Of a stretch of 64,000 nt of DNA, positions 11,121 to 38,075 are shown piece by piece. This stretch comes from a virus. Each line of letters begins with the position of its first letter. Within the stretch, counting starts at the first letter, position 1. The notes beneath the pieces were generated by a model, which made no database searches, was not told the origin of the DNA, and worked only from the letters and a program-made list of their open reading frames with translations. The translations under genes were made by a program, and so were the position numbers. Location: IMG/VR virus record IMGVR_UViG_3300022804_000001; one strand, written 5' to 3'.

Positions 11121-12266
11121 ATGAAAATAACTTTTGAAAAATCGGATCTACTGCATGCACTGAATCTTGTTAACGGTGCTTGCGGTGGGTCGGATACGTT
11201 ATCCATTCTCTCTTGTGTTATGATTTGTGGAGAGGCTGGAGTGGTTGAAATCACGGGTAACGACTTGGAAATAGCGGTAAAAGTAGAGACACCAGCGATC
11301 ATTGAAAAGGACGGAATGATCGCGGTACCTGCCAAGCGTTTATTGGAATTAGTGAAGGAACTGCCAACGGACAAACCGATTGATTTTGAAGCTTACGGGA
11401 ATAAGAACAAGGACGGGACGATAATTATTAATAAGCTAAAAATTACTTGTGGTGTTGATACCTATCACATGGTCGGTTTGAATGCGGATGATTATCCAGA
11501 GCGAGTAGAAGTAGAAGGGAAAACCTTTACGATAGCATGTAGCGAGTTACAAAATGTGCTGCGTCAAACGGAATTTGCAGCGTCTAAAGAAGGCTTTAGA
11601 TACCAACTCAATGCGATTTTCTTTAATCAGCACGAAGCGGTTGCAACGAATATGAACATCTTGGCAAGGGTTGCATGTCCTGTCCAAACACCAAAATTTA
11701 TTATTCCACTTCAAGCTGCAAAGGAACTACAAAAAACTTTGAAGCATTTAGACTCTGATATAGCTGTCACTGTTGGCAATAATCTGATAAGTTTTGTGTC
11801 TAACCATGTTACGCTGACAAGTCGCTTGATAACGGGAGAGTATTTGCTCTATTGGGAGATTATTCCGAAAAAATATTGGCTCACTACACCAATATTGGAG
11901 GAAGAGATAGAACTATTGACACATGAATATAGCGTTACCGTCTCTAAATCCGATTTTACGGAAGCACTCAAACGTGTATCTGTGTTTGCATGTGATAAGA
12001 CGTTCCTTGTCATTTTAGAGATTGAATCGGGTAAAATACATCTCTCGTGTGAGGATGATGAGGGTAGTTCAACCGAGTGGGTTGCGTGTTCGGGTTCGGG
12101 TTCGGTGCGTATTGGTCTTAACGCGCGTGCATTACTTGAAATTTTATTCCGTGTTGATGGAGAGTCGTTGGTGATTGAGTTTGGAGATGCTGAAACAGCA
12201 ATCCTTTTCAAATCATCGGATACGGATGATTTTATTAGTGTAATGGGTCCGATGTCTTTAGAATAA
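11121..12266 (+). CDS. dnaN: DNA polymerase III beta subunit (sliding clamp)
   Basis: 381 aa. MKITFEKSDLLHALNLVNGA...TLSILSCVMI...ITGNDLEIAV...VPAKRLLELVKELP aligns by eye with the DnaN N-terminus. The length is typical. Confidence 0.85.
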   Translation: MKITFEKSDLLHALNLVNGACGGSDTLSILSCVMICGEAGVVEITGNDLEIAVKVETPAIIEKDGMIAVPAKRLLELVKELPTDKPIDFEAYGNKNKDGTIIINKLKITCGVDTYHMVGLNADDYPERVEVEGKTFTIACSELQNVLRQTEFAASKEGFRYQLNAIFFNQHEAVATNMNILARVACPVQTPKFIIPLQAAKELQKTLKHLDSDIAVTVGNNLISFVSNHVTLTSRLITGEYLLYWEIIPKKYWLTTPILEEEIELLTHEYSVTVSKSDFTEALKRVSVFACDKTFLVILEIESGKIHLSCEDDEGSSTEWVACSGSGSVRIGLNARALLEILFRVDGESLVIEFGDAETAILFKSSDTDDFISVMGPMSLE

Positions 12267-18559: not shown

Positions 18560-21500
18560 TTATTCACCTCGTATTTGCTGTATGCGTGGAATCTCGCGCA
18601 CAAACGGGAATCGTAAACCGAATTCAGTAGCAGCAGCCCTTGGTTTACCAGCAAATAACTCACCAGCAATACGTGAAGTAATACCGATCACCGGTGCGCT
18701 AAAGAAGCTGCTAATCATCTGTGATGCACGATACGGGTTTTGGTCAGATATTTGTGATATTTCAATAATAGTTGATATTGCGCCAGCAGCTTGTGATTGT
18801 GCCAGTGCTTCAAGAATGCGATTACGATCTTCATCGCGTTCGCGTCCCCGCAGTGCATTGAACACAGAAGTCATCACAGCAGCAGAACCCATCATGAAGC
18901 CTGCACCGATAGCGAGACGCATAGCAGGCTTAAGATTTCCCGCTTTCGCTTGTTTTGCAGCGTATCGCATCTGCTCCCAAATAAATTGATGCATTTGTGC
19001 GCTCCATGCTTTGTATTTGAAAAAAGTTCGTAGCATCGGATTTTTCTTTGTGAGAAAATTTGGCATAGACAGTGCGTTATATCCTTTAAAAATGCGTGTT
19101 GACACATATCTTGCCGATTTTGCCATCTCATCACCAATCAGATCAACCATCGGATGTGTCGGTGCTGGCGTGTCAGGTGGACGTAACCCACCAAGCATCA
19201 TTGCGCCATCAAGGACACGTCTTTCAGCCTCTTTTACAAGGTCATCCAAAGATGGAGCTTCATTGTTAGTCAAAGCTTCGTTATACTGTTGTACTGCAGC
19301 AGGTGATATGTTTAGTTCCTGTAATCGTGAAATTGTATTTTTGTTTGGGTTCTGAATGTGTGCTTGTATAGCGTCGCGAGCAGTTTCCCAACCGACAGCT
19401 GTTCCCATGAGTCGCGACCATTTCTCCGTTGTTGTGAATCCTATCATAGACATATACCGGTTTTGCAACTCACCTTGTGCGAGGTAATCACGAGCTTTAT
19501 TAAGTGTTGCCCCAAAGCGCGGTAGCATTTGACGAAACTCAGTGTCAGTGCTAAATCGTTGTAAACCTATCATTAAAGGTTTTGAACCGGACATTGCTGC
19601 CAACCACGGTACCTCTGCGATATTCTGTGCTGCGTTGCCGAATCCAAGTGTAAACATTGTTGTCATTGAGTTTAGAAGTTGCCAAAACTTGTTGGATTGA
19701 CTATCAACAGGCTCAAGTTGATCCCAGTGTCCAAGTCCTTGCACAATTTTTCGCAATGTTTGTTCACGGAGTTGTCTCGTTTCAAAAAACGGCACCATGA
19801 TCTTAACAAATGTGGTATCTTTTGCAGCTTTCGTTTCTCCTTTGATAGTCCATTGGGCATCACCTTTTTGTTCAATCAGTCCGATGCGCTGTAGAGATTC
19901 AAGCACCTCCGGTGTCCATCCTTCTGGGTTTTCGCGTTGCATTCTCTCAATGTCAACAGGATGGTCAGGTGGTGGTGGCGGTTTATCTTCCCAATACTGT
20001 GGATCGCGGACGGGGTGTTTCCAGTTTCGCAAAATATGGTAGGCTTGTGTTTCACCTTCAACGAAGCTCGGCAGCTTTTCAAACATTTCGTGCGACAATA
20101 AGGTGTCCGTCAACACTTTCAGGGCATGTTCATCAGCATCAAGCGTTGTCTGTTCAAGCCTTGAGAGATATTTTTGTAGACGTGGATGTTTTCCAGTTGC
20201 CGGGTCATGCTGTCCCCACACACTGATTTCAGCGAACCTACGCCAGAATAAAGCCGTGTGGTCAAGTAGTGTCATCACATCACGATTATAGAGTCGATCA
20301 TGTGTTTCTCGTGCAATTTCAAGACTACCAAATCGACCTAATAAGTCAGATTCTTTCGTTGCGAGTTGTTGCTGTGCCATTGCGTAGCTTGCATTCCAAA
20401 ACGCGCGTGCCCCAGCGATAGCAGCTTGTTTGCTATCATAGGTTTCACCTGTGCGAGTGAACTCATAGATCCGTCCATCATCCGTATCACGAATAATGAA
20501 GCCGGGGACTTCTTCTATGTCTGGGTCACGTTCTGCTTCCAACAATCTGTCTAACACACCTGTTTCCACTTGGTTCATAAGTTCTGTCCAGTGTGATCTT
20601 GGATATACATGCGGCATATAGAGATAAGATGTTTCATCAATTGCTTGTTCAAGGGTAAGCGTTGCGCCATCTGAATCCCGAATAAACATTTTGTAATCAT
20701 CTAACCATCTATGTCCGGGCAAGATCGGTGTCCACGGTTTTGGTTCTTTACCACTTGTACTATAAACAAGCAGCTGTTCACCGAGTGCTTCAACTTTTTC
20801 TCGGAGTTGCATCATATAAATATCATGTGCTTTAAGTATTTTCCGCCAAGTTTCCTTCCAACCTGTAGCGATTTGTGCAATTTCAGCGTCCTCTATAGGT
20901 GTATTTTCCTCCATGAAACGGTACACCTGTTCGCTAATCATCGAGTATACAGCCTCCCGTGCAGCACCTTTTTGCCCTTTCGTTCGTTGCTTGGCGAGAT
21001 CAATTAATTCCTTGCGATGCGATTCAAGAGTATTTAGGTCTCGAGCAGTGCCTTGTTCCTGTAGACGGAGCAGGTGTTCTGCGATTTCTCTGATTTCCGC
21101 GCCAACTGGTCCCATCGTTTCAAGATTGCGGTATCCTGACATATACTCGCGACGTGTGCGTTCAAGGTTCAATTTCATTTTCGGTGTGTATCCATCCAGT
21201 TTTGCTTTCAAAGACGCAGCAGGGTCAAACAAACTTCTTAGTCGACTAAAAAACCCAATTTTATCAGGGTTCACTGTTCCTGGTTCTGTGCCGTGTGGCA
21301 CAAAATAACTACCGGGTGCAACTCTGTTGGCTGCTGTTGTATAGTCGCGTAAAACAGGGTCTTGGACACCTTGTGGCAAATCTGAACCTAACACCTGTTT
21401 CTGTTCTAAAGGTATACCGTCTATCCAAGCAGATGCGAATTCAGGCTTACCGCGAATGGTACTGTGCAGGTTTGCCATGCCATCGGTATTATTACCGCGA

Positions 21501-24500
21501 CCGACAAATATATGCATCTTTGTTGCTTGTGCAGCGTTAAGGTATCCGTCCAATGTGCCCAATATATCGCGACGATTCATATCCATAAAGCCCTGTTTTT
21601 CTACAACAGAACGTATGTTTCCAGCGTCATCTGTCATGATGAAGGTTGTCCAGCCATCAGGGGTTTTTAGAAACGAGCCAATAAAAGGAGCTTCAGGCAA
21701 TCCGTTCTGTAGGTCAAGTTTTTGTTCTTCTAACCACATCTCGTCACCAGTCTTATCAAATTGACTTGTTGCATAAGTGCCTTCATTGATGATAACTTCT
21801 GCAGCGAGTCTGTTACCAAAACGATCTCTCCATTTCTGTGTTGTTACTTTGTCATCTGCGGAGAACTTTGCGATCTTACTGGTATGGTTATGCACCCGGA
21901 TAAAATCATCAGCTCCTGTTTCATCCAAAAGTCGTTCAACTTCGTCCATTGAACCGGGAGTTGTTGTATCTGACTGTCCGAGCGAAAACCATTCAGCCCC
22001 AACAACTATATTAGATTTCCGCAGAAGAATAAGCGTGCTTTCAACAAGTGGGTTACGAATGAATTGTGCTAAGATCGCGCCTTCCGCAGCGGAACGCAAA
22101 TTCCGTCCTCGGAGTTGGAAGTATTTGTTCATCTTTATCTGTCTGTCGGTAACTTGAAGCGGTTTACGTTGTAAGGTAGGTGTCTCTTGAATAATCGTGT
22201 TGATTTTCTGACGATATTCTTTGCGGACATCAGCACGTTCTGTTTTTGTTTTGGGATAAGCGTGCTCCCAATTAGCGTTTGGTGATTTACGTTTGTAGTC
22301 CGAGAATTCATCGTTTCGGTCGCGAGCCAGTTCTTCATAGTATTCCAAATCTTCAATATCTTGTTCTGGATCAAAATCATCAGGCATATCATCAGGATCA
22401 AGCCCCATATCTAACATCGCCTGCTGTTTTATAGCTTCTTCATCTTGGACATCTTCGGATTTTTCTTCTGTTGTTTGTTGTTCATCTCCGAATAAACTTG
22501 GTTGTGTAGTTTCTTGGGTTTGTTTTTTCGGTTTTGTCGTTTCTTCAATAACCTCGTTGAGCATATCCAGTTTGCTGGGACCCATATACTCCTTTGTGCC
22601 TTTAAACAAAGATTTTTGTATAGCGACACTTACACCGCTCGCCTTGATGTTTTCAATGGCTTTAGCAACATAGTTGATAACGACATTTGCGATGGGACCG
22701 GTGTCTTTGATACCATTGAACGTACGCATCAGCACGATAGATTCTGGTGTGAGTGTTGGGTCAGCATCCGGCGACATAGAATCTATATGTGCGGCGGCTT
22801 GTCCGATTTTAAAGTTGTTCGGTTCACCACGTAGGTGTGAAAGATATTGTAGTGCGGCGCCGACATCATCAGAGATAGAGAGTGCTTGTACATTCGGGTG
22901 ATAGAGTTGTAGCAACGCATCAAACTTTGCAAGATGTGGCAGCATCATCATCAAAGCGCGTGTATTTTGTGTTGGGACTAATGTGCCATTCTCCTTTGCT
23001 TCAAACATGAGTTTCCCTCGTTCTGAAGTAAAGGTTTTTGCAAGCACAGCATTTTCAAACAGGTGTCTTGCGTTAGGGGCAAGTTTACGCGTGTTACCGC
23101 GTCGGTATCGTGACCGTTCTGCTTGATCCAGCTCGTCTATAAATTCAAGAAATGCTGTTAGATTTTGATCTGTTGGATCTGCTAACATTTCAGCGATTGT
23201 TTTCCGATTACTACCACCTGTTTCTCCGAAACTAAACGCATCAAAAATATCTGATGTCAATGATTCGGCATCTTGGACAGCTTGATGTTCGGCGGTGCGC
23301 GGTGCAGCGTCAGGCGTGTTAGAAGCTTCACCAAACGCTTTCGGATCGCTGATTTCCCCAATAACTTGCCGGACTAATACAGGTTCAGTAAACTGTTCTA
23401 AAACGGCAGGATCTATGCCAAATTCAGGTAATCTTTCTGTGAGAGCTTGTAGGTAGGCTTCGGCTGTTCCACCAGCACGCAAGTAAATAAGTTTCAATAA
23501 GATCAAGCGATGATTCCCACCGACAGCATCATAGGAATTAAGCAGTGTAGGTGTACCGCGTCCCATCCCTTGTGTTTTTTCTAAAGGCAGGTTAGGATTG
23601 AACTGATTAGCCCGTGCGCGTTCCTGTATTTCCTCGTAACGCCCTTCGGCGCGTCCTTGTATTCCTAAATCCCAGTTATATGCGGGGTTACGTTCTAACG
23701 AAACACGATTATCAGAAAGTTTGTGTGATGCAACGGCTGATCTGTGTTCTATCAGTTTATAGACAACAGGTGTTTCTTCCCACGAACCGTCGGATTGTTG
23801 CCAACGAATAACGTCTTGATCCCCTTCATACTCAGGCAACGTTTCGCGTTCCGTATCTACTTCTGCACGCGCAGCTTCTTCGGGAGTAGGTTCGGCTTCA
23901 GGTGTTGCTGGCGTTTGTGTTTCTACTTCCGTTTCTTCGGACGGTGTGTCTTGTGTTTGATCTGTCCGATTCGTGTATGCCAACAATTCCTCAAGTGTGT
24001 TGAATGTTGGATAAAATGCATTCCATTCTCCGTCACCCCAATCATGTTCGTCAAAAGAATGAACATTTTCAGCTGTTGATAATGCTTGCGCTTCATCTAT
24101 TGTCCGTTTTGGATCATAGGCATAAAATATAACCTTTTCTGGCACTTCTTTTGTTTTACTTTCGTCGACAAGCCCAATCCCTGTAAACGTTGTTCCGTCT
24201 TGCGCGAATTTGACTGTGTGTTTACTTATATGTTCTATTCCACCTATACGTTGGTCGCCTTCAAGTAAGGAATATCCGGTATAATGATTTCCCATACCTT
24301 CTAACTCTACACGGGTACTGTCAATTTGTTCGTCTGTAAGATTACCGAGGTATTCTGGTTTAAAGGGTGTTGATACATAGTCACCTTCTATTTCTTCTCG
24401 CAACGGGGTAATATCTTCATTTTCTGTTGTTCCCGCAGTTTCCGTTTCGCTATCTTCTTCAGGTTCTTCTGTTTGTGTTTGCGTTGTTGCTGTGCTGTCA

Positions 24501-26632
24501 GTATTTGTATCATCAGTATCCTCCGGTTGTGCTGGTGCTTGCTCCGTTTTTTTATACATATTCCCGGCTGCCCGCGTTACCTGTCCTGCTAATTCTAATT
24601 GAAAAAGTATCGTAAGCACGTCTTTGGTAGGCAACCCTGAATCCTGTACGATGTTATTAACATTTGTCTCCGCATCAATTGCATTCAAGACGCGTTCTCG
24701 CTGTTCTTCTTCACTTATTTGCTCAGTAGGTTCTTCCGGAGTTTCCTGTGTCTGTTGTGGTTCTGAAACTTCTTCTTCCGTCTCAGATATTTCGTCGGGT
24801 TGTTCCTGTACTGGAGTTTCAGTATCGGTTTCATTTGTTGTTTCTTGCTCAATTTGTTCATCTTCGACTTGTGGGGGTAGTATTTCATTTGCGCGTGTAA
24901 CAACGCGTTGGAAAAGTTGAGCACCTTCTTGTGGTGTCATATTCAGTTCACGTTGCATCTTATTAACAGCATCATTCAATTGTTGTGAGATGTACCGTAA
25001 AGGAGTGCCTTTCTCTATTGCTTCAACATAAGATTGTGCTTGTGTTTCGACAAACTGTTCAGTAGGATCAGACTCTTCGGTTGGTACTGTCTCTGTAGTC
25101 TGTTCGGTAGGCTGCGTTTGTGTTTCTTCGATTTGTTCCGTTGAATCGGGTTGTTCCGTTGGTTGGATTTGTTCTGGTGGTGTTTCTTGTGTTGTATCCT
25201 CTTGAGGTTGCTGTTGCCTTTCTTCTCGACGCAACTCCCGACGTGCTTCCCTTTCTCTACGATTGTTCTGATGGTTTTGCCACATTGAGTTGATGTCTAC
25301 CTTGAATGTTGGAATTTGTGTTGGTCCTGATGCGATAATACGACCATTATCTCTCACACCGGGTTGATGTGAACCGGATAACACAGCGTCGCGTGCGCCG
25401 GCATAACTATCAATGCCGTGCGACTTATCTATGAGGATAGCGTTTTCCACGTCTACTTCGCCAAATGCGCCACCGCTAAACCATACCTGCCAATGTCGAT
25501 TGTCAAATTCACCGGTTTCCGGGTTTGGCACGCGTTTGACAGTCATTGCACCGACACTCGATTCATCGTTGGGGTCACCATAAGCATATTTACGTGTGTT
25601 ATCAAAAGTTTGTTTTGAGCCGGGTGTCTGCGGCATCACAACAGAACCATCAGACATTTGCCATAATTCATGCACAAACGGTACAACGCCACCGGGCAGT
25701 GCTTGTGGTGTTTTCGGGGCTTGTTGTCCGAATTGTATACCTAATCCTGCACCTTGTGTTTGTGGTTCTTGTTCAAGTGGCACAAGATGCATAGGGCGTC
25801 CACTTGGTGGCAGCGTCGTTTTCAAGCCGGGTGGTGTTAGTATTGTACCTGATGGATCACCTGGCAATGTTGTCTGCGATCCAGGAGGTGTTTGTGGTCT
25901 TGCTTGTGTTGTTTGCGGTGTTCTTGGTGGTGTAGGTGGTGGTGTCGTTTGTGAGGGTATTTCAGGTGGCACATCCGGTGGCGGTCCATCAGCTGATAGA
26001 TCGGGTCTACCTTGCAAAGAGCGTGCAAGCCCGCTTGTACCAAGATCAATAGCAACATCTGCACCTAATTCAAGCGGCCATTCTTCTATACCTGTGAACA
26101 CATCAAGAGCTTCAGCTCCACGTGCAGCATGCGTGAAACCACGACTACCTGCTGCGCGCCCAAGCGTAGATGCAAGCGTTGTTCTTCCCGCAGCACGCGC
26201 ACCAGCACCGGCAAGAGCCGTCCCTAATCTACCAACAGGCACAAATGCTGCCAGCCCCGTAAGCGTTTGAAGTGGACGATCGCCAAGCCCACCACCTTCA
26301 GCAACGACTGTGCCTGCTGCACGGAAAGGTGAAGTAACAACACTTTTGGCAACTTCACCGACACCGCCTATAATGCCATGCCTTTGGAAGTGTTCTCCTG
26401 CGGCTTTAACGCCTATGCCGGGGTCACTAAAAGCCCGTGCAATACCGCGTAGTTCCCGACCAACCCCGTAACTTGCATCGTTTAGCGCACGTTCTACTAC
26501 ACCGTAGCGACGCCAGTCATTCCGCAGACGCTCTTGGAACGCCTCCCAAGAACCCGGTGTATTAAACAAACCATAGTTGATGGCATTCGCTATCATTTGT
26601 TGTTCTTCTGGTGTAAACGTTACTGTTGCCAT
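18560..26632 (-). CDS. giant (2,690 aa) polyvalent-type virion/ejection protein
   Basis: One uninterrupted ORF. Pro/Thr linker at aa 215-290. Several Glu/Gln/Thr-rich acidic linkers. wHTH-like segment at aa 646-695. ParB/Srx-like motif DAVGGNHRLILLK at aa ~1035-1047. Exact JAMM motif HNHTSKIAKFSADD at aa 1581-1594. Hydrophobic C-terminal segments. It ends the internal-protein module. Confidence 0.85.
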   Translation of the reverse strand: MATVTFTPEEQQMIANAINYGLFNTPGSWEAFQERLRNDWRRYGVVERALNDASYGVGRELRGIARAFSDPGIGVKAAGEHFQRHGIIGGVGEVAKSVVTSPFRAAGTVVAEGGGLGDRPLQTLTGLAAFVPVGRLGTALAGAGARAAGRTTLASTLGRAAGSRGFTHAARGAEALDVFTGIEEWPLELGADVAIDLGTSGLARSLQGRPDLSADGPPPDVPPEIPSQTTPPPTPPRTPQTTQARPQTPPGSQTTLPGDPSGTILTPPGLKTTLPPSGRPMHLVPLEQEPQTQGAGLGIQFGQQAPKTPQALPGGVVPFVHELWQMSDGSVVMPQTPGSKQTFDNTRKYAYGDPNDESSVGAMTVKRVPNPETGEFDNRHWQVWFSGGAFGEVDVENAILIDKSHGIDSYAGARDAVLSGSHQPGVRDNGRIIASGPTQIPTFKVDINSMWQNHQNNRREREARRELRREERQQQPQEDTTQETPPEQIQPTEQPDSTEQIEETQTQPTEQTTETVPTEESDPTEQFVETQAQSYVEAIEKGTPLRYISQQLNDAVNKMQRELNMTPQEGAQLFQRVVTRANEILPPQVEDEQIEQETTNETDTETPVQEQPDEISETEEEVSEPQQTQETPEEPTEQISEEEQRERVLNAIDAETNVNNIVQDSGLPTKDVLTILFQLELAGQVTRAAGNMYKKTEQAPAQPEDTDDTNTDSTATTQTQTEEPEEDSETETAGTTENEDITPLREEIEGDYVSTPFKPEYLGNLTDEQIDSTRVELEGMGNHYTGYSLLEGDQRIGGIEHISKHTVKFAQDGTTFTGIGLVDESKTKEVPEKVIFYAYDPKRTIDEAQALSTAENVHSFDEHDWGDGEWNAFYPTFNTLEELLAYTNRTDQTQDTPSEETEVETQTPATPEAEPTPEEAARAEVDTERETLPEYEGDQDVIRWQQSDGSWEETPVVYKLIEHRSAVASHKLSDNRVSLERNPAYNWDLGIQGRAEGRYEEIQERARANQFNPNLPLEKTQGMGRGTPTLLNSYDAVGGNHRLILLKLIYLRAGGTAEAYLQALTERLPEFGIDPAVLEQFTEPVLVRQVIGEISDPKAFGEASNTPDAAPRTAEHQAVQDAESLTSDIFDAFSFGETGGSNRKTIAEMLADPTDQNLTAFLEFIDELDQAERSRYRRGNTRKLAPNARHLFENAVLAKTFTSERGKLMFEAKENGTLVPTQNTRALMMMLPHLAKFDALLQLYHPNVQALSISDDVGAALQYLSHLRGEPNNFKIGQAAAHIDSMSPDADPTLTPESIVLMRTFNGIKDTGPIANVVINYVAKAIENIKASGVSVAIQKSLFKGTKEYMGPSKLDMLNEVIEETTKPKKQTQETTQPSLFGDEQQTTEEKSEDVQDEEAIKQQAMLDMGLDPDDMPDDFDPEQDIEDLEYYEELARDRNDEFSDYKRKSPNANWEHAYPKTKTERADVRKEYRQKINTIIQETPTLQRKPLQVTDRQIKMNKYFQLRGRNLRSAAEGAILAQFIRNPLVESTLILLRKSNIVVGAEWFSLGQSDTTTPGSMDEVERLLDETGADDFIRVHNHTSKIAKFSADDKVTTQKWRDRFGNRLAAEVIINEGTYATSQFDKTGDEMWLEEQKLDLQNGLPEAPFIGSFLKTPDGWTTFIMTDDAGNIRSVVEKQGFMDMNRRDILGTLDGYLNAAQATKMHIFVGRGNNTDGMANLHSTIRGKPEFASAWIDGIPLEQKQVLGSDLPQGVQDPVLRDYTTAANRVAPGSYFVPHGTEPGTVNPDKIGFFSRLRSLFDPAASLKAKLDGYTPKMKLNLERTRREYMSGYRNLETMGPVGAEIREIAEHLLRLQEQGTARDLNTLESHRKELIDLAKQRTKGQKGAAREAVYSMISEQVYRFMEENTPIEDAEIAQIATGWKETWRKILKAHDIYMMQLREKVEALGEQLLVYSTSGKEPKPWTPILPGHRWLDDYKMFIRDSDGATLTLEQAIDETSYLYMPHVYPRSHWTELMNQVETGVLDRLLEAERDPDIEEVPGFIIRDTDDGRIYEFTRTGETYDSKQAAIAGARAFWNASYAMAQQQLATKESDLLGRFGSLEIARETHDRLYNRDVMTLLDHTALFWRRFAEISVWGQHDPATGKHPRLQKYLSRLEQTTLDADEHALKVLTDTLLSHEMFEKLPSFVEGETQAYHILRNWKHPVRDPQYWEDKPPPPPDHPVDIERMQRENPEGWTPEVLESLQRIGLIEQKGDAQWTIKGETKAAKDTTFVKIMVPFFETRQLREQTLRKIVQGLGHWDQLEPVDSQSNKFWQLLNSMTTMFTLGFGNAAQNIAEVPWLAAMSGSKPLMIGLQRFSTDTEFRQMLPRFGATLNKARDYLAQGELQNRYMSMIGFTTTEKWSRLMGTAVGWETARDAIQAHIQNPNKNTISRLQELNISPAAVQQYNEALTNNEAPSLDDLVKEAERRVLDGAMMLGGLRPPDTPAPTHPMVDLIGDEMAKSARYVSTRIFKGYNALSMPNFLTKKNPMLRTFFKYKAWSAQMHQFIWEQMRYAAKQAKAGNLKPAMRLAIGAGFMMGSAAVMTSVFNALRGRERDEDRNRILEALAQSQAAGAISTIIEISQISDQNPYRASQMISSFFSAPVIGITSRIAGELFAGKPRAAATEFGLRFPFVREIPRIQQIRGE

Positions 26633-26635
26633 TAT

Positions 26636-28135
26636 TTATAGTCCTAACCTTTTTGCTTCAGCAATCGCTGCTTCAAGTGCCTGTTGTGTCGTAGGATTTG
26701 CTGCACCTTGTGTGATAATTTCTTGGTTGATTTGCGCGCTTAGGTCAGATATTTTCTGCGTAACATCAGTTTGTAAATTCCTTCTATGTTTCAGTGTAGT
26801 AGGTATATTCCCAATTTTTCTGCCTGCCTTTGTGCCAGCGCGCCATGCGCCTTTACCGACACGTGGTATCACCCGTGCTGGATTTGTATATCTGAAAAAC
26901 CTGCCATAGTTACCCGGTAAAAAACCGCCTAATGTTGCAGCACCGGTGTACCCTAAACCTGCCCAGCCGAGATTGCCCCAATTGAACCAACCGTCATCGG
27001 TAACACCTTCATCGATTTGTTTCTGTTGTTCAGGTGTGAGTTTTGGATCAGGCGTACCACTAATACCAAACCAAAAAGCGTTGTATATTTTTTGTTCAAG
27101 TGTGTCAATACCGGCTGGCGTTTTACCAACACGTTGTAGCATTTCATTATAGGTCTCTGCCACCTCTGGATCAGATAAACCCGTGACAAAGCCACCGGCA
27201 TATCTGTTAATATCATCGGGTGTGTACTGAAAAGAATATCCAAGATTACTGCGAACAGAACGTCCTTCCTGTTTTGCCATTTCAAGTATTTGATATTCAG
27301 ATAACTCTGGTGCGAGCCAACCTTTTCTTTGTTTTATGTCTTTGACTTTTTGCGCGAAGCTTCGCCCGCGTGCTTGTGCGAGATCAAAGTATTCCGATCT
27401 AAATGTCGGTGATTTCGCAGTAGGTTGCCCTTCGGCTAATGTGCGCGCATTGAGCAAATTGATATTCGCCTGCAGCTGCTGCACCTCCCACGGCAACATT
27501 TTGTTGATACGATCAAGTTGCGCTTTGCTTAAATCGTATCGAGACGCAGATAACGCCAAATTCCAAGGATGTAGTTCTGCGGATTGATCTGTTGCTTGTC
27601 GCATGGCTCGCACCTGTTCTTGTAGCTGTTCGGGAAGGTATTGTAGGCTTATTTTACTTGCTTCATTTCCAATCCGTTGCGCTTCAAGTAATCCCGGACG
27701 ATATGTACGCATAAATGCGTTATCGTCTCGCATTCTGTCAGTTGCCAATCCTTGCTGTGTGATCTGACCACGTGTGATCTGAACATTGAGCGGGTGTAGT
27801 TCACCGCGTTGTTGATATGTTTGTCCGCTCAATGCATTGGCAAGTTGCATGCCGGTAACCCGATATGGATGAATCTCTGCACTCTGTTCAATTGTCTGTG
27901 CTGTTCCTTGATTTGCGAGTTCTGCTGCAGTTACGCGATGGGGTTGTAATGCTTGTGCAAAATTCCGTCCCTGTTCTGCGGTCGCAAGGTTAGATAATGT
28001 TGTAGCACGATTCAACGCGTGTGTTCGTTCCCATCGGTCATCCGTGATAGTATCGCGTTCGTCGCGATACATATTCGCCAGCCGTCTCCCTAACATCATT
28101 TGTGAGCCTTGTAAAGCACCACTCAAAAATCCCAT
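26636..28135 (-). CDS. internal virion protein candidate
   Basis: 499 aa. Gln-rich helical repeats with a recurring (I/L)HP(Y/L/W)(R/N)(V/L) motif. C-terminal Gly/Trp-rich hydrophobic region. TAATG coupling to the upstream gene. Confidence 0.6.
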   Translation of the reverse strand: MGFLSGALQGSQMMLGRRLANMYRDERDTITDDRWERTHALNRATTLSNLATAEQGRNFAQALQPHRVTAAELANQGTAQTIEQSAEIHPYRVTGMQLANALSGQTYQQRGELHPLNVQITRGQITQQGLATDRMRDDNAFMRTYRPGLLEAQRIGNEASKISLQYLPEQLQEQVRAMRQATDQSAELHPWNLALSASRYDLSKAQLDRINKMLPWEVQQLQANINLLNARTLAEGQPTAKSPTFRSEYFDLAQARGRSFAQKVKDIKQRKGWLAPELSEYQILEMAKQEGRSVRSNLGYSFQYTPDDINRYAGGFVTGLSDPEVAETYNEMLQRVGKTPAGIDTLEQKIYNAFWFGISGTPDPKLTPEQQKQIDEGVTDDGWFNWGNLGWAGLGYTGAATLGGFLPGNYGRFFRYTNPARVIPRVGKGAWRAGTKAGRKIGNIPTTLKHRRNLQTDVTQKISDLSAQINQEIITQGAANPTTQQALEAAIAEAKRLGL

Positions 28136-29499: not shown

Positions 29500-30423
29500 T
29501 TAGTAAAGTCCTCCCGGTCCTGTATAGAGTCTTGGGGCAGCGCCATGTAAATATTTTCTTGGTGTTGGAAGTGGTTCTATCCCCTCAAGAAACCCATAGT
29601 CAATCTCAGGTTCAGCTACGTTCATTAGACCAGGTGTCGGATTCAAATCGTCAAACGCAACTTCAAAGCCCGGCATCGTTATATCAGGAACTCCCATACT
29701 CATATCTGGCATAGTCGGTATGTGCGGTGCTGAAGGCATCGCATCAGGCAATTCCATGTTCGGTGGAATTGCCATCGGTGTTTGGGGCGGGGGCATTGTC
29801 ATGGGAACTGGTGAACGTGGTATCATCGGTGGCGGTAATACATCCGGCACAGCTGGCGTCCAACCGGGCGTCATCGACGGCGTCAATGGATCACGCGGTG
29901 TCAATGTCGGATCAGGAACATCGTCCCAATCGTTGGGTCCAACCGTCGGTGGCGTTAGCGGAGGATTCGTAAACATCGGTACAAGACCTATAGGTGGAAT
30001 AAATCGACCGCTTCTGCGAGCAGGTAACCCACCGGGATTGTAGGGTGTCATTGCACCACCACCACTGCGTACCATCGCACCACCAGGATTGTAAGGTGTC
30101 ATTGCACCACCGCTACGTACCATCGCACTACCTCCAGTTGGGACAGCTTTACCACCAGCGTTGTAAGGCATCATGCCACCGCCACCACTTTGAACCATAG
30201 AGTTGCTGCTCGGCATCATACCACCGCCACCGCTACGCATCATGTTAGGTCTCATGGTAGCGTTTCCTACCATATCATCAGCAATACTACCCGCGGTTCT
30301 ACCAGCTCGCGCACCTCTACCTGCAGTCCATAACGCACGACCTTCCTTCACTATATCCGCAGCAGAACGAAGCGGTTTACCAGCTCGCATTGCTAACTGA
30401 AGTGCTGTTTTTAGCATTCCCAT
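29500..30423 (-). CDS. Gly/Met/Pro-rich repeat protein (internal virion protein candidate)
   Basis: 307 aa. MVRSGGGAMTPYNPGG-type repeats. The C-terminal half is Pro-rich. AAAGGAG RBS. Confidence 0.65.
   Translation of the reverse strand: MGMLKTALQLAMRAGKPLRSAADIVKEGRALWTAGRGARAGRTAGSIADDMVGNATMRPNMMRSGGGGMMPSSNSMVQSGGGGMMPYNAGGKAVPTGGSAMVRSGGAMTPYNPGGAMVRSGGGAMTPYNPGGLPARRSGRFIPPIGLVPMFTNPPLTPPTVGPNDWDDVPDPTLTPRDPLTPSMTPGWTPAVPDVLPPPMIPRSPVPMTMPPPQTPMAIPPNMELPDAMPSAPHIPTMPDMSMGVPDITMPGFEVAFDDLNPTPGLMNVAEPEIDYGFLEGIEPLPTPRKYLHGAAPRLYTGPGGLY
30030..30245. repeat. 48-nt coding tandem repeat
   Basis: Units at 30030-30077 and 30078-30125 are about 90% identical. Further degenerate units run to about 30245. 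Each encodes a 16-aa MVRSGGGAMTPYNPGG unit. Confidence 0.7.
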
Positions 30424-30504: not shown

Positions 30505-31257
30505 TTATCTACCTGTAAAACTGGGGTATGTTAGACGGCTTGCACCTGTTTTACTCCTGACTTGAGAGAAGGTATTTCCCAATTTACTTCCTCCACTTAA
30601 TGCTGGACGTTTTGAACCAATACCAGAGTTAACTTTCGGTATATGTGTGAACCCACCCCCTCGTTGTGTTCCGTATCCTCGTGGTGTTAATATCGGACTT
30701 CTGACACTGAACGGACTTTCTCCTAAAGAGACCGTCGGTTTCTGTGGTTGGCTATTCCGAAGTTCGTGTAGCAACCCTACAGTGTTCACAATTCCCATAC
30801 CTATTTGTCCTAATTCCGATCTACGTTGTGCGAGTAGATCATGTCCAAATCCCATACCCTGAAGCGATTGTGCTGCTAATGCATTCGTAAGTGCTTTGCT
30901 CTGTTCGGTATAGGTATCTGCCATGATTCGTCCAGCAATTGTACTATTTGTTAATCCTGATCTGCCTAAATAACCGCCTAACTCATGACGCATCTGATCG
31001 TAGTGTCCGCTCAACTGGTTCGCAAGATGGTTTTTGTAGCTAACTGGTAGAATTCCACTCGCTAACGCATCTGCTTGCTCAAGACGTTCTGCATTTTCTT
31101 CTGCGCCGAAATAACCTGATAGTCCGCCAATAAGCCCACCACCGATCGCGCCGATTACTGTACCGGGACCAGGGAAAAGTGAACCTATTGATGCACCTGT
31201 TGCGGCGCCGCTTAAGAGACCTGTGCCGGTGTCTGTTAGGTATGTTCGCCAAGCCAT
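30505..31257 (-). CDS. glycine-zipper membrane protein (internal virion protein candidate)
   Basis: 250 aa. N-terminal GATGASIGSLFPGPGTVIGAIGGGLIGGLSGYFG glycine-zipper TM segment. Confidence 0.6.
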   Translation of the reverse strand: MAWRTYLTDTGTGLLSGAATGASIGSLFPGPGTVIGAIGGGLIGGLSGYFGAEENAERLEQADALASGILPVSYKNHLANQLSGHYDQMRHELGGYLGRSGLTNSTIAGRIMADTYTEQSKALTNALAAQSLQGMGFGHDLLAQRRSELGQIGMGIVNTVGLLHELRNSQPQKPTVSLGESPFSVRSPILTPRGYGTQRGGGFTHIPKVNSGIGSKRPALSGGSKLGNTFSQVRSKTGASRLTYPSFTGR

Positions 31258-31932: not shown

Positions 31933-32874
31933 TCAGAAACATGATTCATAAAATGGCAAATTCTCTTCACAATAGTTTAGTGAGACTTTAGGAAACCACT
32001 CCGAAAGTAGTTCATAAAGTAACGGATCCTTCTCGGCAAATTCTTCATACGACTTATACTGTTGGGTTGTGAAGTCATCTCCAATATCGAAAAACCATGT
32101 CGCAAGTCCTTCTGCAAAATACTCCCAGTAAGCACCATGAAGTCTATTTGCTGCTTCAAAGGCAACCTCTACCTTCTCCAAGAATCCTGGTTGTAAACGC
32201 TCTATCTCCACATCTAATACGTGCGCTAATTCGTGAACAAATATCCATAACCTGTCTGATCTATAATTTCTGCCTTTCAAACGAGCCCTGCAATAACCAT
32301 TTATTCCAGGTGCGTTAAGATTGTGTGATACGTCACAACCGCTGGAGAACCATAGGTTGACGACCTCTGGGACATCCCATCCAGTTATAAAGTTTTTGAC
32401 AAGAATCATGTAAAATCCCTGTTCCATTCGTAGACGATTTCGAAGTTCAGGATGTTTTGATGTTATTGTCAAAATAGCCTCTCTGGCTTTAATAACAAGC
32501 AAATCTTCTACTTCTTCATGGGATACAATAGCTATACCATCAGCATCAATATATTTCGTATAGAACGCTTTCTGCAGCGTAAGCAGATCAGACTCCTCTA
32601 ATTCCTCTATCGGAACACCTGGAAATTTACGTTCTAAATTTTGTTTGAAAGTTTCATCAGCCCCTTCTGTAAAATACACACCTCGCCATGCTCTTATTCT
32701 GTCTTCTCTACCTGGTCCCATCGCTATTTCAAACACTTCATTTGGAGGCACAGTAACAGTAGGTGCACCAATAGATTCTAAACTCACAACCTGCACTGGG
32801 TCTAATGGAAGCTCATCACATCCCCAAATGCATAAAACTAAGCAAATAATCAGTAAATAACTTCTGACCTTCAT
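31933..32874 (-). CDS. exported HExxH zinc metallopeptidase (gluzincin / lethal-factor-like motif spacing), possible lipoprotein
   Basis: 313 aa, GGAG RBS. Signal peptide with Cys (LVLCIWGC). FVHELAHVLD followed ~30 aa later by YFAEGLATWF, which resembles the HExxH...E-FFAE arrangement of the ATLF/M34-like family. Confidence 0.6.
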   Translation of the reverse strand: MKVRSYLLIICLVLCIWGCDELPLDPVQVVSLESIGAPTVTVPPNEVFEIAMGPGREDRIRAWRGVYFTEGADETFKQNLERKFPGVPIEELEESDLLTLQKAFYTKYIDADGIAIVSHEEVEDLLVIKAREAILTITSKHPELRNRLRMEQGFYMILVKNFITGWDVPEVVNLWFSSGCDVSHNLNAPGINGYCRARLKGRNYRSDRLWIFVHELAHVLDVEIERLQPGFLEKVEVAFEAANRLHGAYWEYFAEGLATWFFDIGDDFTTQQYKSYEEFAEKDPLLYELLSEWFPKVSLNYCEENLPFYESCF

Positions 32875-32956: not shown

Positions 32957-33955
32957 ATGCGTAAGAATTCGCAACCTTTTCCTGATGGGCGTGTATCGTC
33001 TAAAAGTTTGATTGATCCGATCTATAAAGTGTTCTGGAACTTACCGACACTTGAAGAACCCCCTCCTACACCTGACAATCCGAGTTCAAATGTTATTGCG
33101 TTGAGTATTTTGTTCACGGATGCGTATAAACGCGTTGCGAACCTTGAGGCTTGGGTTCGTGGTGTTATTTATTCTCGTTGGTCAGCGTTGAAGTATACGG
33201 ATGCTGTATCCGAAAATGTTGCGGTCAAGCTCTATATTGAGGACATACTCAGACCCTCCCTTGAATCAACACTCATATCTAACTTTGTTGATCCTGACAA
33301 AGACGTATTGTGGTTTAGTGCGCCTCCTCTTGAAAGAAGTGATGATGGTTTCTGGGGTCATTTAGGCAAACAGATGTGTCCATATTGGGATACCCAGTTA
33401 GCCGATTATGATCGTATTCTTGTATGGGACGCGGATACGTTTTTCTTGCCCCGTCCACACACCATGTTTACAAAACTAAAAAGTCTTGAATCTGCTATGA
33501 TCGGTTATATTTTTGCGATAACAATGCCTTGGAAAGACTTCTACTATACATTCAAACACAAACTACGCAAGGATACCCGAAAAAGTGGTATTGAAATTGA
33601 AGAGTTGCTTGCTATGTCAGATATTGTATTTGACGAGTTCCCGGAGACCATCCAAAAACCGTTTGGCTCTATGTGGTCTTATCCGCCTAAACATTACCAT
33701 ACACACCATCAAGATTTTGTCCAGTGGATGCAGACGTACGCCCCTTACTATGGCAACGACGAGCTGGCTGCGGTTTGTTGGTCACACAAGTTTGGGATAA
33801 ACATCAAATCCCTTGATATTCTGTTAGATCTAAGAATGTATGATACACCTTCGTTTTTGACAAGTCCTGACACACACACCCAAAAAAATGTTTTACATGG
33901 ATTACCTTCAGTATCTCGGGAAGAAGTTTTCCGTGAAACACTGAAGATAATGTAG
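32957..33955 (+). CDS. GT-A-like glycosyltransferase paralogue (DxD), opposite strand
   Basis: 332 aa. ILVWDADTFFL (DxD). Shares the KLY(I/V)E and LGK boxes with 36476-37495 and 38072-39043. Confidence 0.55.
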   Translation: MRKNSQPFPDGRVSSKSLIDPIYKVFWNLPTLEEPPPTPDNPSSNVIALSILFTDAYKRVANLEAWVRGVIYSRWSALKYTDAVSENVAVKLYIEDILRPSLESTLISNFVDPDKDVLWFSAPPLERSDDGFWGHLGKQMCPYWDTQLADYDRILVWDADTFFLPRPHTMFTKLKSLESAMIGYIFAITMPWKDFYYTFKHKLRKDTRKSGIEIEELLAMSDIVFDEFPETIQKPFGSMWSYPPKHYHTHHQDFVQWMQTYAPYYGNDELAAVCWSHKFGINIKSLDILLDLRMYDTPSFLTSPDTHTQKNVLHGLPSVSREEVFRETLKIM

Positions 33956-35001: not shown

Positions 35002-35436
35002 TCACTTATGCATTCCTAAGACGACGAGTCCGTGTTGAGCCCTTACATCTGTTAATGCGTCAAAGATAGAAGCGTTGACTTTATTGTTTTCCAGGACATT
35101 AGTGAGTAGTTCTTTACTTACGAGAAATGGTGTATCTTTAACGAATTCATCAAGGTATGGATATGTGCTTTCAGGCAGATGGTACAATGCTCCTCCATCG
35201 AGGTCTATGTTATAGACGGGTGTTCCAGCTTCATCTATGTTGTTAATATCAAACAACACGACGGGTACGTTTGGTTTTATTGCGAGATGAAAATCTATAA
35301 AAGCGTTGATTTTCAGTGTAATATCAGTTGGATCTTCATCTTTCATCTCCGCAGGTGCGATGACAGCGAATTCAGTTTTATGTCTTTCAGAAGCACAAAC
35401 AGCCATATCGAATCTTGAAATTCTATCATTTTTCAT
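35002..35436 (-). CDS. hypothetical protein
   Basis: 144-aa ORF with an ATGA overlap to the upstream glycosyltransferase. Confidence 0.6.
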   Translation of the reverse strand: MKNDRISRFDMAVCASERHKTEFAVIAPAEMKDEDPTDITLKINAFIDFHLAIKPNVPVVLFDINNIDEAGTPVYNIDLDGGALYHLPESTYPYLDEFVKDTPFLVSKELLTNVLENNKVNASIFDALTDVRAQHGLVVLGMHK

Positions 35437-36476
35437 AGGATACTCCTGATGAAGTTGTTGAGTTGTTCTTGTGTAGCTTTGTAAGAGAAGTGTTCTTCAG
35501 CATATTTTCGTGCTTTGACCCCGAGTTCTTTGTCAGGGAGTTGTGTAAAATCCGCAGTCAGTTCTGCGAGAGCATCAATACACTCCTTTATATCAACAAA
35601 GCGAGCCGTCGTAGGTTGCTCATCATAGCATCGATGTTTGCCACAGACGCGTGGTTTACCACTTGAGAGAAGTTCCATCCCGAACCGATTGCAAGTTTCA
35701 TACTTCGGGTTCAACACACCGACCGCTGCCTTTCCGATTGTAGATGCGACCTTTGCTTGTGGCACTTGCCCATAAAACAGTTCAGTGTGTTTCTTGAGTT
35801 CGTGTTGAAGCCGTAAATCAGGTGGATTGAAATCTCCCCATCCGCCGGCACTTCCGACATAAGCGGTTTTATATTGTTTTTTATATTGCTTAAGTTCTTC
35901 AAATAACCGAATAAAGAACTCGGTTTGTTTCGCGTAGCTAATCGTCCCACCCGCAACGATAATTTTCTCCGTGTTCTCACTGGGTCTAAAGAGGTCGGTA
36001 TTTATCGGCTCATATAACACACCCAACACGGGCAGGTCAAAGTCTCTGAAATAATCTGCCTGCCATTCGCAGTTAGCGATCCATGCAGTAACTATTGTCT
36101 TGAGGCGATTGAGTTCATTTCCTGTCCAGCGAAAGATTTCCGAGTCACTGCCGTAGACAATCTTCGGTGCTGGATATGCCTCTAATTCCGAAACACGTTC
36201 CTCAAATCGTTCACGCGGGTTCAACAATCCCATTAGCTCAATCATAATCAAGTCATATTGCTTGATGGTATTAGCATCCTGCTGAGAACGCTCCTGCGGT
36301 GGTAGCCAAGTCTTTTCAATAGGGACTTCTGCAGCAGCAGTTGGCAGGCGATCTGCTACAGTAACGTCGTGCATATCCCATGCCTCTTGCATGCTGATAG
36401 TTTTCGTTCCCATTCCCCCAGCATTGCGATTTCTATTAAGAAAGTCAGTTCGAGTATAATAAAGTATATTTGCCAT
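35433..36476 (-). CDS. GT-B fold glycosyltransferase (GT4-like)
   Basis: 347 aa. The C-terminal half has ...IVAGGTISYAKQTEFFIRLFEEL...AYVGSAGGWG... and ETCNRFGMELLSSGKPRV, resembling the E-x7-E / G-x-P-V region of GT1/GT4 enzymes. Confidence 0.6.
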   Translation of the reverse strand: MANILYYTRTDFLNRNRNAGGMGTKTISMQEAWDMHDVTVADRLPTAAAEVPIEKTWLPPQERSQQDANTIKQYDLIMIELMGLLNPRERFEERVSELEAYPAPKIVYGSDSEIFRWTGNELNRLKTIVTAWIANCEWQADYFRDFDLPVLGVLYEPINTDLFRPSENTEKIIVAGGTISYAKQTEFFIRLFEELKQYKKQYKTAYVGSAGGWGDFNPPDLRLQHELKKHTELFYGQVPQAKVASTIGKAAVGVLNPKYETCNRFGMELLSSGKPRVCGKHRCYDEQPTTARFVDIKECIDALAELTADFTQLPDKELGVKARKYAEEHFSYKATQEQLNNFIRSIL

Positions 36477-37495
36477 TAGAAATTCCTTGTTAAATCTACA
36501 TAAAGTTTCGACATATACTCATCTGTTCTATCTTGTTCTCCAGCAAATACATGGACATGTGAGAAAAACGGATTAGTGCTGCCATGCAAATAATGACCTA
36601 TGACTGCATTCTGGTCAAAATACTGCCGAACACTCATTTTATTTTCAATCGAAAATGGTCTTTGATGAACATCAGGATACATATAATAGTAAGAAATAAA
36701 CAAGTTTTCATCTTGTCCACTCCTCTTGTAAAATGCCATTAAAAACTCATGTAAGTCGGGGTCGGATAAATTATACAATGTTAGACTGCTGTTGATATGA
36801 TATAATTCTTGAGGTCGGTTTACGGATGGATGTCCTGCTTTCTTCATAATTTCGGTCATTTGCGTCTTGAACGGCTCTGTTCTATCAAAATCATCAATAC
36901 CTAATCCTGTTGAGAGAATATGTATAATAGCATAAAAATCTACCGGTGCAGGGTCATTTGCTGTCCAAAAAGCGACAGTCTCAAAATCTAACAACTTGAT
37001 CTGTTCATAAAGATTTACAGGTTGATTAGGAACTGAGAGATACATATCACTATCAAGAAGCATTATAGTCTGATGATCCATCAAACGCTCGTCAAAAAGT
37101 GGTGATAACTTCCAACCAAGCGGTGCAGTATTGAGATCAAATTGATTTTCCCACCCATTTGTATCGAATAACATTCTGTGACGACCGCAAACATCAAAAT
37201 AATCAAACACAGCACTACTGAGTACTTCAACAGATTTTTGCACGTAAAAATAAATAGGTATACGCCTCGCTAAAAAATCTGAATTCCTTAATAAACACGC
37301 TGCTGCCCAAACTGCTGAATGACAATGTAATTGAAATTCCGTTGAGGAAAAAGGTGCAGATAAAGTGTTTCGCTCATCCTTAAATAACGGTATGACAACT
37401 ACTAAATCACTGTCGTAATCAGGTTCGTATTTGGGGAAATTGAATATAGGTAATTTCTCAATATAAGGTTTGTCAAATTTAGGAGTATCCGCCAT
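36476..37495 (-). CDS. GT-A-like glycosyltransferase paralogue (DxD)
   Basis: 339 aa. VVVIPLFKDE, IYFYVQ, LGWK and LLDSDMYL boxes are collinear with 38072-39043 and 32957-33955. Confidence 0.55.
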   Translation of the reverse strand: MADTPKFDKPYIEKLPIFNFPKYEPDYDSDLVVVIPLFKDERNTLSAPFSSTEFQLHCHSAVWAAACLLRNSDFLARRIPIYFYVQKSVEVLSSAVFDYFDVCGRHRMLFDTNGWENQFDLNTAPLGWKLSPLFDERLMDHQTIMLLDSDMYLSVPNQPVNLYEQIKLLDFETVAFWTANDPAPVDFYAIIHILSTGLGIDDFDRTEPFKTQMTEIMKKAGHPSVNRPQELYHINSSLTLYNLSDPDLHEFLMAFYKRSGQDENLFISYYYMYPDVHQRPFSIENKMSVRQYFDQNAVIGHYLHGSTNPFFSHVHVFAGEQDRTDEYMSKLYVDLTRNF

Positions 37496-38075
37496 TTTCT
37501 CTCACCTTGAAAATAATATTACTGTGGTCGCGTCTTCGAATCGCTTCCATTGAAGGATTACCTCTGTAGATTTGGATTTTTGTGTCATTAAATAATTCTA
37601 CACGTTGATCTATTTCTACATCAGGGACATCTTCAACAACTATCGCTGCATGTCTCTCATGCATAAACTGTTGATAATGCTTCCAAAAGAAATGTTGATC
37701 TTCTACATTATGTGAACCATCATCGATCAACAAATCAAAAGGTGCGAACGGATTGATATGATCTAAAACTTCTGGAACATAAGCATCTGAATGTATAAAA
37801 GCCATGCCTGTTGGAAGATCCGTATCTAACGGCTCGCGATCTACACCGACATATCTATTAATGTAAGTCATTTTCGCAAAAGCATGATAACTCGCTTCAA
37901 CACCCATATTGCTGACACCGACTTCAAGCACTTTTAACGGGCGCTGAATCCGACAAAGCAGTAAAGCAAAGATCATATCGTAAAACTCGTCATACCGATG
38001 ACTATGCATTTTATCAGTGTTGCTATCTGTCCGTAAATACGCTGTTGCAGGTTTAATAATGAATTCTTGTATCAA
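37479..38075 (-). CDS. class I SAM-dependent methyltransferase
   Basis: 198 aa. LKVLEVGVSNMG (motif I), YVGVD (post-I) and FDLLIDDGSH (CmcI / O-methyltransferase-like motif). Confidence 0.65.
   Translation of the reverse strand: MIQEFIIKPATAYLRTDSNTDKMHSHRYDEFYDMIFALLLCRIQRPLKVLEVGVSNMGVEASYHAFAKMTYINRYVGVDREPLDTDLPTGMAFIHSDAYVPEVLDHINPFAPFDLLIDDGSHNVEDQHFFWKHYQQFMHERHAAIVVEDVPDVEIDQRVELFNDTKIQIYRGNPSMEAIRRRDHSNIIFKVRENGGYS

Follow-up and report, generated by a model that had tools for sequence, protein, structure and literature searches.

In phage T7, gp16 takes part in the ejectosome at its inner-membrane and cytoplasmic end (PMC8954989). Homologues of IVP-D, or internal virion protein D, host enzymes destined for the cytoplasm, as in N4 gp50 and in gp60 of Pseudomonas phage H66, which combines a methylase with IVP-D (Hardies et al. 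2016, PMC4819975), and the N4 virion RNA polymerase passes as beads on a string through a channel of ~35 Å (PMC13434306). Phage P1, on the other hand, packages DarB and DdrB in its head so that they protect the incoming DNA, and polyvalent proteins place several unrelated effector domains in one chain (Iyer et al. 2017, PMC5512222). Here we describe a gene that would join these two ideas, the podovirus ejectosome protein gp16/IVP-D and the polyvalent anti-defence proteins of P1 Dar type. It lies in IMG/VR virus record IMGVR_UViG_3300022804_000001, of which a stretch of 64,000 nucleotides (the window) was analyzed, and encodes a single protein of 2,690 aa, the giant protein. We consider it likely that this is a polyvalent ejection protein of a temperate, probably short-tailed phage, with a gp16-class scaffold that bears anti-restriction cargo resembling the Dar proteins of P1.

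The scaffold is formed by the C-terminal 875 aa (aa 1816-2690), referred to as the C-module. An AlphaFold2 (AF2) model computed from a 72-sequence alignment is mostly helical and well determined (pLDDT 89.4, pTM 0.88); a previous model from 5 sequences was unusable (pLDDT 50). Foldseek comparison with predicted viral structures (BFVD) returned 39 matches at E<=1e-3, the leading ones with probability 1.0 and TMq 0.41-0.50 over ~900-1,000 columns. Among them are proteins of Bordetella BB8, Erwinia pEp_SNUABM_12, Providencia PSTRCR_120, LKA1 and RSB3 that are annotated as internal (virion) protein D or core protein, with TMq 0.41-0.47 for the annotated IVP-D proteins, as well as a structural protein of KPP25 and C-terminal pieces of proteins annotated as "large polyvalent protein associated domain-containing".

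Sequence profiles gave a compatible result. An hhalign comparison of a 71-sequence family profile with 18 aligned gp16 sequences taken from T7-like contigs yielded a probability of 92.9% and E 3.7e-7 over 351 columns, with the hydrophobic helix of the module (aa 2569-2594) in register. Four neighboring proteins, run as a control against the gp14, gp15 and gp16 families by the same procedure, gave E 0.14-0.8; the gp16 signal is therefore specific. Among 46 superfamily members scanned (43 distant and 3 stand-alone), 15 match PHROG 342, whose annotation is shared with T7 gp16, and 18 match PHROG 684, "virion structural protein". We thus assign aa 1816-2690 to the gp16/IVP-D class, judging by sequence homology over the last ~400 aa and, over the whole module, by a fold likeness to predicted models only. 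An earlier note on this DNA had proposed an ejected core protein from gene position only, and homology now supports this. Where the same note saw several C-terminal hydrophobic helices (aa ~2570-2650), we find one that is strongly hydrophobic. For annotation, the C-terminal ~900 aa of such giants would best be named a gp16-class module and not a polymerase.

Upstream of the scaffold, three effector-type domains were recognized once the protein had been split at its linkers and rescanned with Pfam, with gathering scores as cut-offs. The unsplit protein gave only DprA_WH and a RadC match below its cut-off, and ParB was missed. After splitting, the DprA-type winged helix, the DdrB-like ParB domain and the RadC-like JAB domain all score above gathering, in agreement with the winged helix-turn-helix-like, ParB/Srx-like and JAMM pieces picked out in the earlier note. 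The check that it had proposed, profile and structure searches on segments cut at the linkers, thus supported three domains and matched the C-module fold to predicted IVP-D models. Whole, the giant protein has no match among PDB sequences.

The JAB domain carries an exact JAMM motif, HNHTSKIAKFSADD (aa 1581-1594, nt 21851-21892). Its site residues E1531, H1581, H1583, S1591 and D1594 follow the pattern E...HxHx7Sx2D and, together with N1582, are invariant in an alignment of 14 family copies; H1581 had been correctly placed before. The motif is intact in 20/20 JAB copies across 19 proteins, and the RadC-JAB profile of the family matches PDB 2QLC, a solved RadC homologue (E 3e-9). The position of the domain is fixed as well, since in the giants bearing it RadC-JAB is the last recognizable domain ahead of the connector and the C-module. 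This fixed place and the invariant active site suggest a role in nucleic-acid processing, as proposed for RadC by Iyer et al. 2017 (PMC5512222), or in cargo cleavage. The domain may accordingly be either a nucleic-acid-processing enzyme or a cis-acting peptidase that frees the cargo from its anchor. A specific form of the second option, that JAB releases the cargo string from a membrane-bound anchor after ejection and replaces the Zn-metallopeptidase (MPTase) of other polyvalent proteins, seems rather unlikely to us. If true, it would give the enigmatic RadC clade its first defined biochemical role, and "N1 cap - cargo - JAB - IVP-D" would be a new architecture for delivery, by which phages having a gp16-class ejection protein inject a complete Dar-like anti-restriction kit in one chain.

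The ParB domain resembles ddrB of P1-like plasmids. A tblastn search with aa 953-1205 gave matches in 471 plasmid records, most of which are P1-like plasmids of ~90 kb from E. coli and Salmonella; identity to the ParB region is ~27%, and one matched feature is annotated ddrB. The conserved arginine of the GxxR motif is R1042, within GGNHR (1038-1042). The earlier note was off by one, as position 1041 is a histidine, and the R1041A mutant it proposed would hit this residue. The plasmid ddrB matches extend to aa 1205-1261, i.e. into the S7 extension, and S7 and ParB occur together in P0002-6, P0014, P0023, P0027 and P0029-31. ParB plus S7 had no match among PDB sequences. The giant protein and DdrB share the ParB/Srx domain with its conserved arginine, whereas the C-terminal MPTase of DdrB was not found here by Pfam; by this comparison the giant protein appears to share a domain with DdrB and not to be its orthologue.

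The remaining beads are less readily placed. N1 gave no match in a Pfam scan and compared negatively to T7 gp14, gp15 and gp16, and N2 had none in Pfam or PDB sequences. For S5 nothing was found in Pfam, in PDB sequences or in a protein database search, and no relative has this bead, not even the closest one, P0002, which is 87% identical from aa 887 on. S5 looks like a recent orphan-domain insertion between two acidic linkers.

The chain itself is real. The same 2,690-aa protein is on record on 3-5 independent contigs from JGI and Logan assemblies, the longest of 67.9 kb, and is therefore not an assembly artefact; that origin for the 8-kb open reading frame (ORF) was rejected. The single frame described previously stands, with an ATG start. 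Windowed composition also closely reproduced the Pro/Thr-rich and acidic linkers described there, placing the Glu/Gln/Thr-rich acidic linkers at aa 455-540, 575-632, 692-760, 871-950 and 1351-1430, each with a net charge of -15 to -20. Two of them (aa 575-632 and aa 692-760) flank the DprA-type winged helix. The linkers total 462 aa, or 17% of the giant protein, whose overall net charge is -129. Coordinates of the protein segments and of the marker genes in the window are collected in Table 1.

Table 1. Segments of the giant protein and marker genes of the window, with nucleotide positions in the 64,000-nt stretch.
Feature	Residues or length	Position (nt)	Strand	Remarks
Whole ORF	2,690 aa + stop	18560..26632	minus	ATG start at 26632, uninterrupted; closes late (structural) block
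N1 cap	aa 1-214	25991..26632	minus	Gly/Ala-rich, partly hydrophobic; extreme N-terminus of 22 giant relatives
Pro/Thr-rich linker	aa 215-289	25766..25990	minus	composition windows aa 201-289; 27% Pro, 22% Thr+Gln
N2 bead	aa 290-454	25271..25765	minus	conserved only in P0002-P0006 and P0008
DprA-type winged helix (DprA_WH)	aa 633-691	24560..24736	minus	Pfam PF17782, 46 bits, E 4.6e-12
S5 orphan bead	aa 745-895	23948..24400	minus	between two acidic linkers; unique to the window's protein
DdrB-like ParB/Srx domain	aa 953-1090	23363..23776	minus	Pfam PF18763 (ddrB-ParB), 42 bits, cut-off 27.6; PHROG 5143
S7 extension	aa 1100-1370	22523..23335	minus	partly DdrB-like; travels with ParB domain
RadC-like JAB domain	aa 1500-1640	21713..22135	minus	Pfam PF04002 over aa 1533-1603, 23.5 bits, cut-off 22.1
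S10 connector	aa 1641-1815	21188..21712	minus	conserved, JAB domain to C-terminal module; segment mapping on relatives
C-terminal IVP-D (T7 gp16)-class module	aa 1816-2690	18563..21187	minus	AF2, Foldseek, hhalign
gp16-homologous core	aa 2290-2684	18581-19765	minus	hhalign to gp16 845-1258
Strongly hydrophobic helix	aa 2569-2594	18851-18928	minus	one such helix seen
Four syntenic upstream genes	499/280/307/250 aa	26636..31257	minus	Gly-zipper, Gly/Met/Pro-rich, helical repeat; synteny
SU10-type adaptor		57715-58896	minus	late block
Major head protein		59775-60737	minus	late block
P22-type portal	721 aa	61737-63902	minus	first in late block
DNA polymerase III beta clamp		11121-12266	plus	plus-strand block 3.5-17.8 kb
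Short tyrosine-recombinase-like protein	246 aa	15417-16157	plus	plus-strand block 3.5-17.8 kb

Close relatives of the giant protein are few. An exhaustive HMMER search of 1.8 billion representatives, run with the C-terminal profile, yielded 111 representative clusters, of which 40 have E<1e-30; the family, with about 40 clusters at this threshold, is rare. A homologue search of a protein database with a 19-sequence alignment returned 3 proteins only, and a C-module search in viral contigs and GTDB genomes gave no confirmed relative. Where no contig end truncates the protein, the C-module match stops no more than about 40 aa short of the C-terminus, in proteins of 850 to 4,946 aa. Close homologues retain ~500 aa at the N-terminal end and ~1,000 aa at the C-terminal end and exchange the middle. 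In P0005 (3,798 aa), for instance, identity is 66% over the N-terminus and 75% over the C-terminus, with a Strawberry-notch-type (Sno) helicase in between. Segment mapping on all relatives revealed a common grammar of N1 cap (22 giants), variable cargo, RadC-JAB, connector and C-module. Pfam scans of 11 further giants detected AAA_34 with Helicase_C_4 in 11/11, RadC in 7/11, a methylase in 4/11 and ddrB-ParB in 2/11, with very strong scores for the helicase and methylase.

At the other end of the size range, P0118 (919 aa) is a complete stand-alone C-module gene. The gene (locus L004, 10001-12760) lies in a chromosomal island, with two N6/N4 methylases and three CAP12/TIR-domain genes adjoining and no evident prophage, perhaps as a remnant or as a copy that has been domesticated. 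Stand-alone anchors of ~900 aa, the 2,690-aa form and forms of 4,900 aa constitute a natural series, well suited to asking how very large proteins thread a tail, which cargo counters which defence and what a RadC-type JAB domain does.

The genomic setting is that of a virion structural block. The gene closes a late block that also encodes Ig-domain and tail-fibre-like proteins (Table 1). No tape-measure protein was noticed in it, the largest other ORFs of the block being the portal and one of 659 aa; a tape-measure or tail protein was also rejected as the identity of the giant itself. The P22-type portal and SU10-type adaptor, with no tape measure noticed, point to a phage that is probably short-tailed. 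The same portal, head and adaptor markers occur at the P0007 locus, and the same structural context recurs in loci L001, L005 and L006; in four loci portal and adaptor genes accompany the giant gene in structural modules. The four genes directly upstream are syntenic too, as the order 250/307/280/499 followed by the giant is kept in L006 (64-74% identity) and L001 (34-46%). We regard these four as candidate partner ejection proteins.

One relative, P0006, lies inside a 5.9-Mb bacterial chromosome (locus L001) and the window encodes a tyrosine-recombinase-like protein; the group is therefore temperate. In tblastn searches of GenBank phages the whole giant protein gave a ParB-methyltransferase match only and the C-module nothing, and the portal is 24% identical to that of Bacillus phage PK1. 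Judged from sequence comparison, the phage is without a close cultured relative.

Taken as an ejection protein, the giant would operate as follows. The C-terminal ~875 aa would place it in the internal core of the capsid. After adsorption it would be expelled through the portal-tail channel and act in the ejectosome at its inner-membrane and cytoplasmic end. The beads upstream of this anchor (N1, N2, the DprA-type winged helix, S5, the DdrB-like ParB with its extension and the RadC-like JAB) are joined by proline-rich or acidic linkers of roughly 60-90 aa, which may let the 300-kDa protein thread the narrow channel one domain at a time or in an unfolded state. Inside the cell, the DNA- and nucleotide-acting cargo could work on or beside the entering genome and would most likely blunt restriction or other defences. 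The model for this cargo role is provided by the Dar proteins of phage P1, and larger relatives carry a DarB-like methylase and helicase in the same slot. With P1 Dar-like cargo of this kind, ParB here and methylase or helicase in relatives, protection of the entering DNA would therefore be the most likely role.

Each of the described systems accounts for part of this arrangement. As in T7 gp16, the module is helical, its C-terminal ~400 aa are homologous to gp16 845-1258, and its hydrophobic helix aligns; the predicted fold of all 875 aa matches predicted models of annotated IVP-D proteins, and the gene belongs to a structural block with a P22-type portal. Unlike T7 gp16, the giant lacks the N-terminal lytic transglycosylase and instead bears ~1,800 aa of DNA-acting beads and linkers; nor does it have recognizable gp14 or gp15 partners or a match to solved T7 structures. 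N4 gp50 and H66 gp60 share with it the build of a giant ejection protein, beads on a string with an IVP-D-type C-terminal region that carries enzymes whose site of action is the cytoplasm. However, the cargo here is a winged helix, DdrB-ParB and RadC-JAB and not an RNA polymerase, similarity to gp50 is not significant, and no Zn-metallopeptidase was detected.

The likeness to the polyvalent proteins of Iyer et al. 2017 lies in the combination of several unrelated effector domains in one chain beside packaging or late genes, with mosaic exchange of cargo. Such proteins carry at least two effector-type domains in a virion-gene neighborhood; here DprA_WH, ddrB-ParB and RadC-JAB exceed gathering scores, and the gene shares a strand block with the portal, head protein, adaptor and tail fibre. 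The polyvalent architecture suggested previously is thus upheld, with three distinct effector-type domains and relatives that swap the middle cargo while keeping both ends. The delivery module differs, being gp16-class and not MuF or DarA-N, and no MPTase was detected. The summary of that study confines RadC to polyvalent proteins of conjugative elements, while its RadC section also mentions prophages (PMC5512222); here, by contrast, RadC is found in 19 phage proteins at a fixed position. With P1 Dar the giant shares the ParB region, and its larger relatives add the DarB-type methylase and helicase. P1, however, is a myovirus that loads separate Dar proteins via DarA/Hdf, whereas the cargo here is fused in one chain to an ejectosome protein.

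The earlier note did not recognize the domain combination as a characterized one, which holds only in part. The specific architecture appears new, that is, the conserved order of N1 cap, Dar-like cargo, RadC-JAB, connector and gp16-class anchor, and so do the rarity of the family and the phage-borne, positionally fixed RadC domain. The principle is known, since publications already describe polyvalent proteins (Iyer 2017) as well as enzymes that IVP-D homologues host and that are destined for the cytoplasm (Hardies et al. 2016, PMC4819975). A search of a literature library found no paper that combines a gp16/IVP-D ejectosome protein with polyvalent anti-defence proteins. In this family the ejection protein itself would be the delivery vehicle, and its cargo would be exchangeable ParB, methylase, helicase and RadC domains.

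Several alternatives bear on this interpretation. A giant late gene product could be an RNA polymerase that is packaged in the virion and transcribes early genes, of either the N4-like single-subunit or the crAss-like two-barrel type, and the earlier note had left open whether aa 1700-2560 hold such a fold. Its size and late-operon position resemble those of N4 gp50, and the scaffold is shared, as the C-terminal domain of gp50 is itself an IVP-D homologue. Nevertheless, Pfam detected no RNA polymerase family in the giant, whole or split, or in 16 relatives, and neither a DxDxD nor a DFDGD motif occurs anywhere in the protein. Comparison with N4 gp50 gave no phmmer match, a best blastp E of 0.037 and, for its C-terminus, an hhalign E of 0.29. 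The region in question falls largely in the confidently modeled, almost entirely helical gp16-like module, and the remaining beads, at 150-270 aa, are too small for a polymerase. The question is thus answered in the negative; we rejected this candidate and hold a packaged polymerase to be extremely improbable. Given the homology of the gp50 C-terminal domain to IVP-D (Hardies et al. 2016, PMC4819975), the N4 polymerase and the giant protein may be viewed as different cargoes on the same kind of scaffold. It is also conceivable, though we give it little credence, that the giant is not packaged at all and is a cytoplasmic protein expressed late or from the prophage (serving, for example, anti-defence, replication/partition or superinfection exclusion), its helical and hydrophobic C-terminal region being no more than a membrane anchor. 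The phage is uncultured, and we infer packaging and ejection as well as topology, the anti-defence role and the JAB substrate. ParB, winged-helix and RadC domains are also found in non-virion proteins, and the stand-alone P0118 sits beside methylases and TIR-domain genes with no obvious prophage. The profile homology to internal virion proteins of the gp16 class, and the match to them in fold, argue otherwise, as do the PHROG "virion structural / internal virion protein" matches in the wider family, the structural modules with portal and adaptor in four loci, and the fact that DdrB-like ParB domains are typically encoded beside virion genes, with P1 DdrB packaged in the head (PMC5512222). That the giant is essentially a structural ejectosome component, its N-terminal domains degenerate or mere spacers devoid of enzymatic or anti-defence role, we likewise judge improbable. 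The C-module is indeed the best conserved part (87% vs 63% identity to P0002), and stand-alone C-modules exist. However, the JAMM catalytic residues do not vary among the 20 JAB copies, the arginine of the ParB GxxR motif is conserved as well, and relatives have intact helicase and methylase domains; moreover, cargo exchange between close relatives fits selection on cargo function.

A polyvalent ejection protein therefore remains our preferred interpretation, and a number of results weigh against it. Foldseek found no match among solved structures (best E 0.38), which leaves predicted models of annotated proteins as the basis of the structural link. Homology to gp16 at the sequence level is limited to the last ~400 aa, hhalign of single sequences with T7 gp16 is weak (E 5.9e-4 and 5.4e-3), and a 5-sequence profile (A1) found nothing against gp16 (E 0.055). 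The 499-, 280-, 307- and 250-aa proteins upstream show no detectable similarity to the gp14, gp15 and gp16 families, although IVP-C is known to diverge beyond recognition (PMC4819975). Four beads (N1, N2, S5 and S7) are without assigned function. No MuF, DarA-N or MPTase domain, common though not universal in polyvalent proteins, was detected by Pfam at E<=1 for the whole protein or E<=5 for the split one; the place of the head-targeting domain and the MPTase may be taken by the gp16-class module and the JAB domain. Lastly, the N-terminal part of T7 gp16 stays periplasmic (PMC8954989), and N-terminal cargo hence need not reach the cytoplasm; its arrival there rests on the N4 and H66 precedents.

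Some features of the neighboring genes were also observed. The 499-aa protein directly upstream of the giant (26636-28135, minus strand) contains three E(I/L)HP(Y/L/W)(R/N)(V/L) repeats and ends in a hydrophobic stretch rich in Gly. The 307-aa protein (29500-30423, minus) is Gly/Met/Pro-rich with repeats of SGGG(A)M(M/T)PYN type, and the 250-aa protein (30505-31257, minus) has an N-terminal glycine zipper and weak PHROG matches to unknown and endolysin families. Further along, a 313-aa protein (31933-32874, minus) combines a lipoprotein-like signal (…CLVLCIWGC) with an HExxH motif (FVHELAHV). It has no PDB sequence match and may be a secreted zinc metallopeptidase encoded within the late block. 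A 347-aa ORF (35433-36476, minus) resembles a 332-aa product of L006 that has a weak Glycos_transf_1 match, a candidate correspondence, and is followed within the structural block by ORFs of similar size (35433-39043, minus). A lone gene on the opposite strand (32957-33955, plus) lies amid the block.

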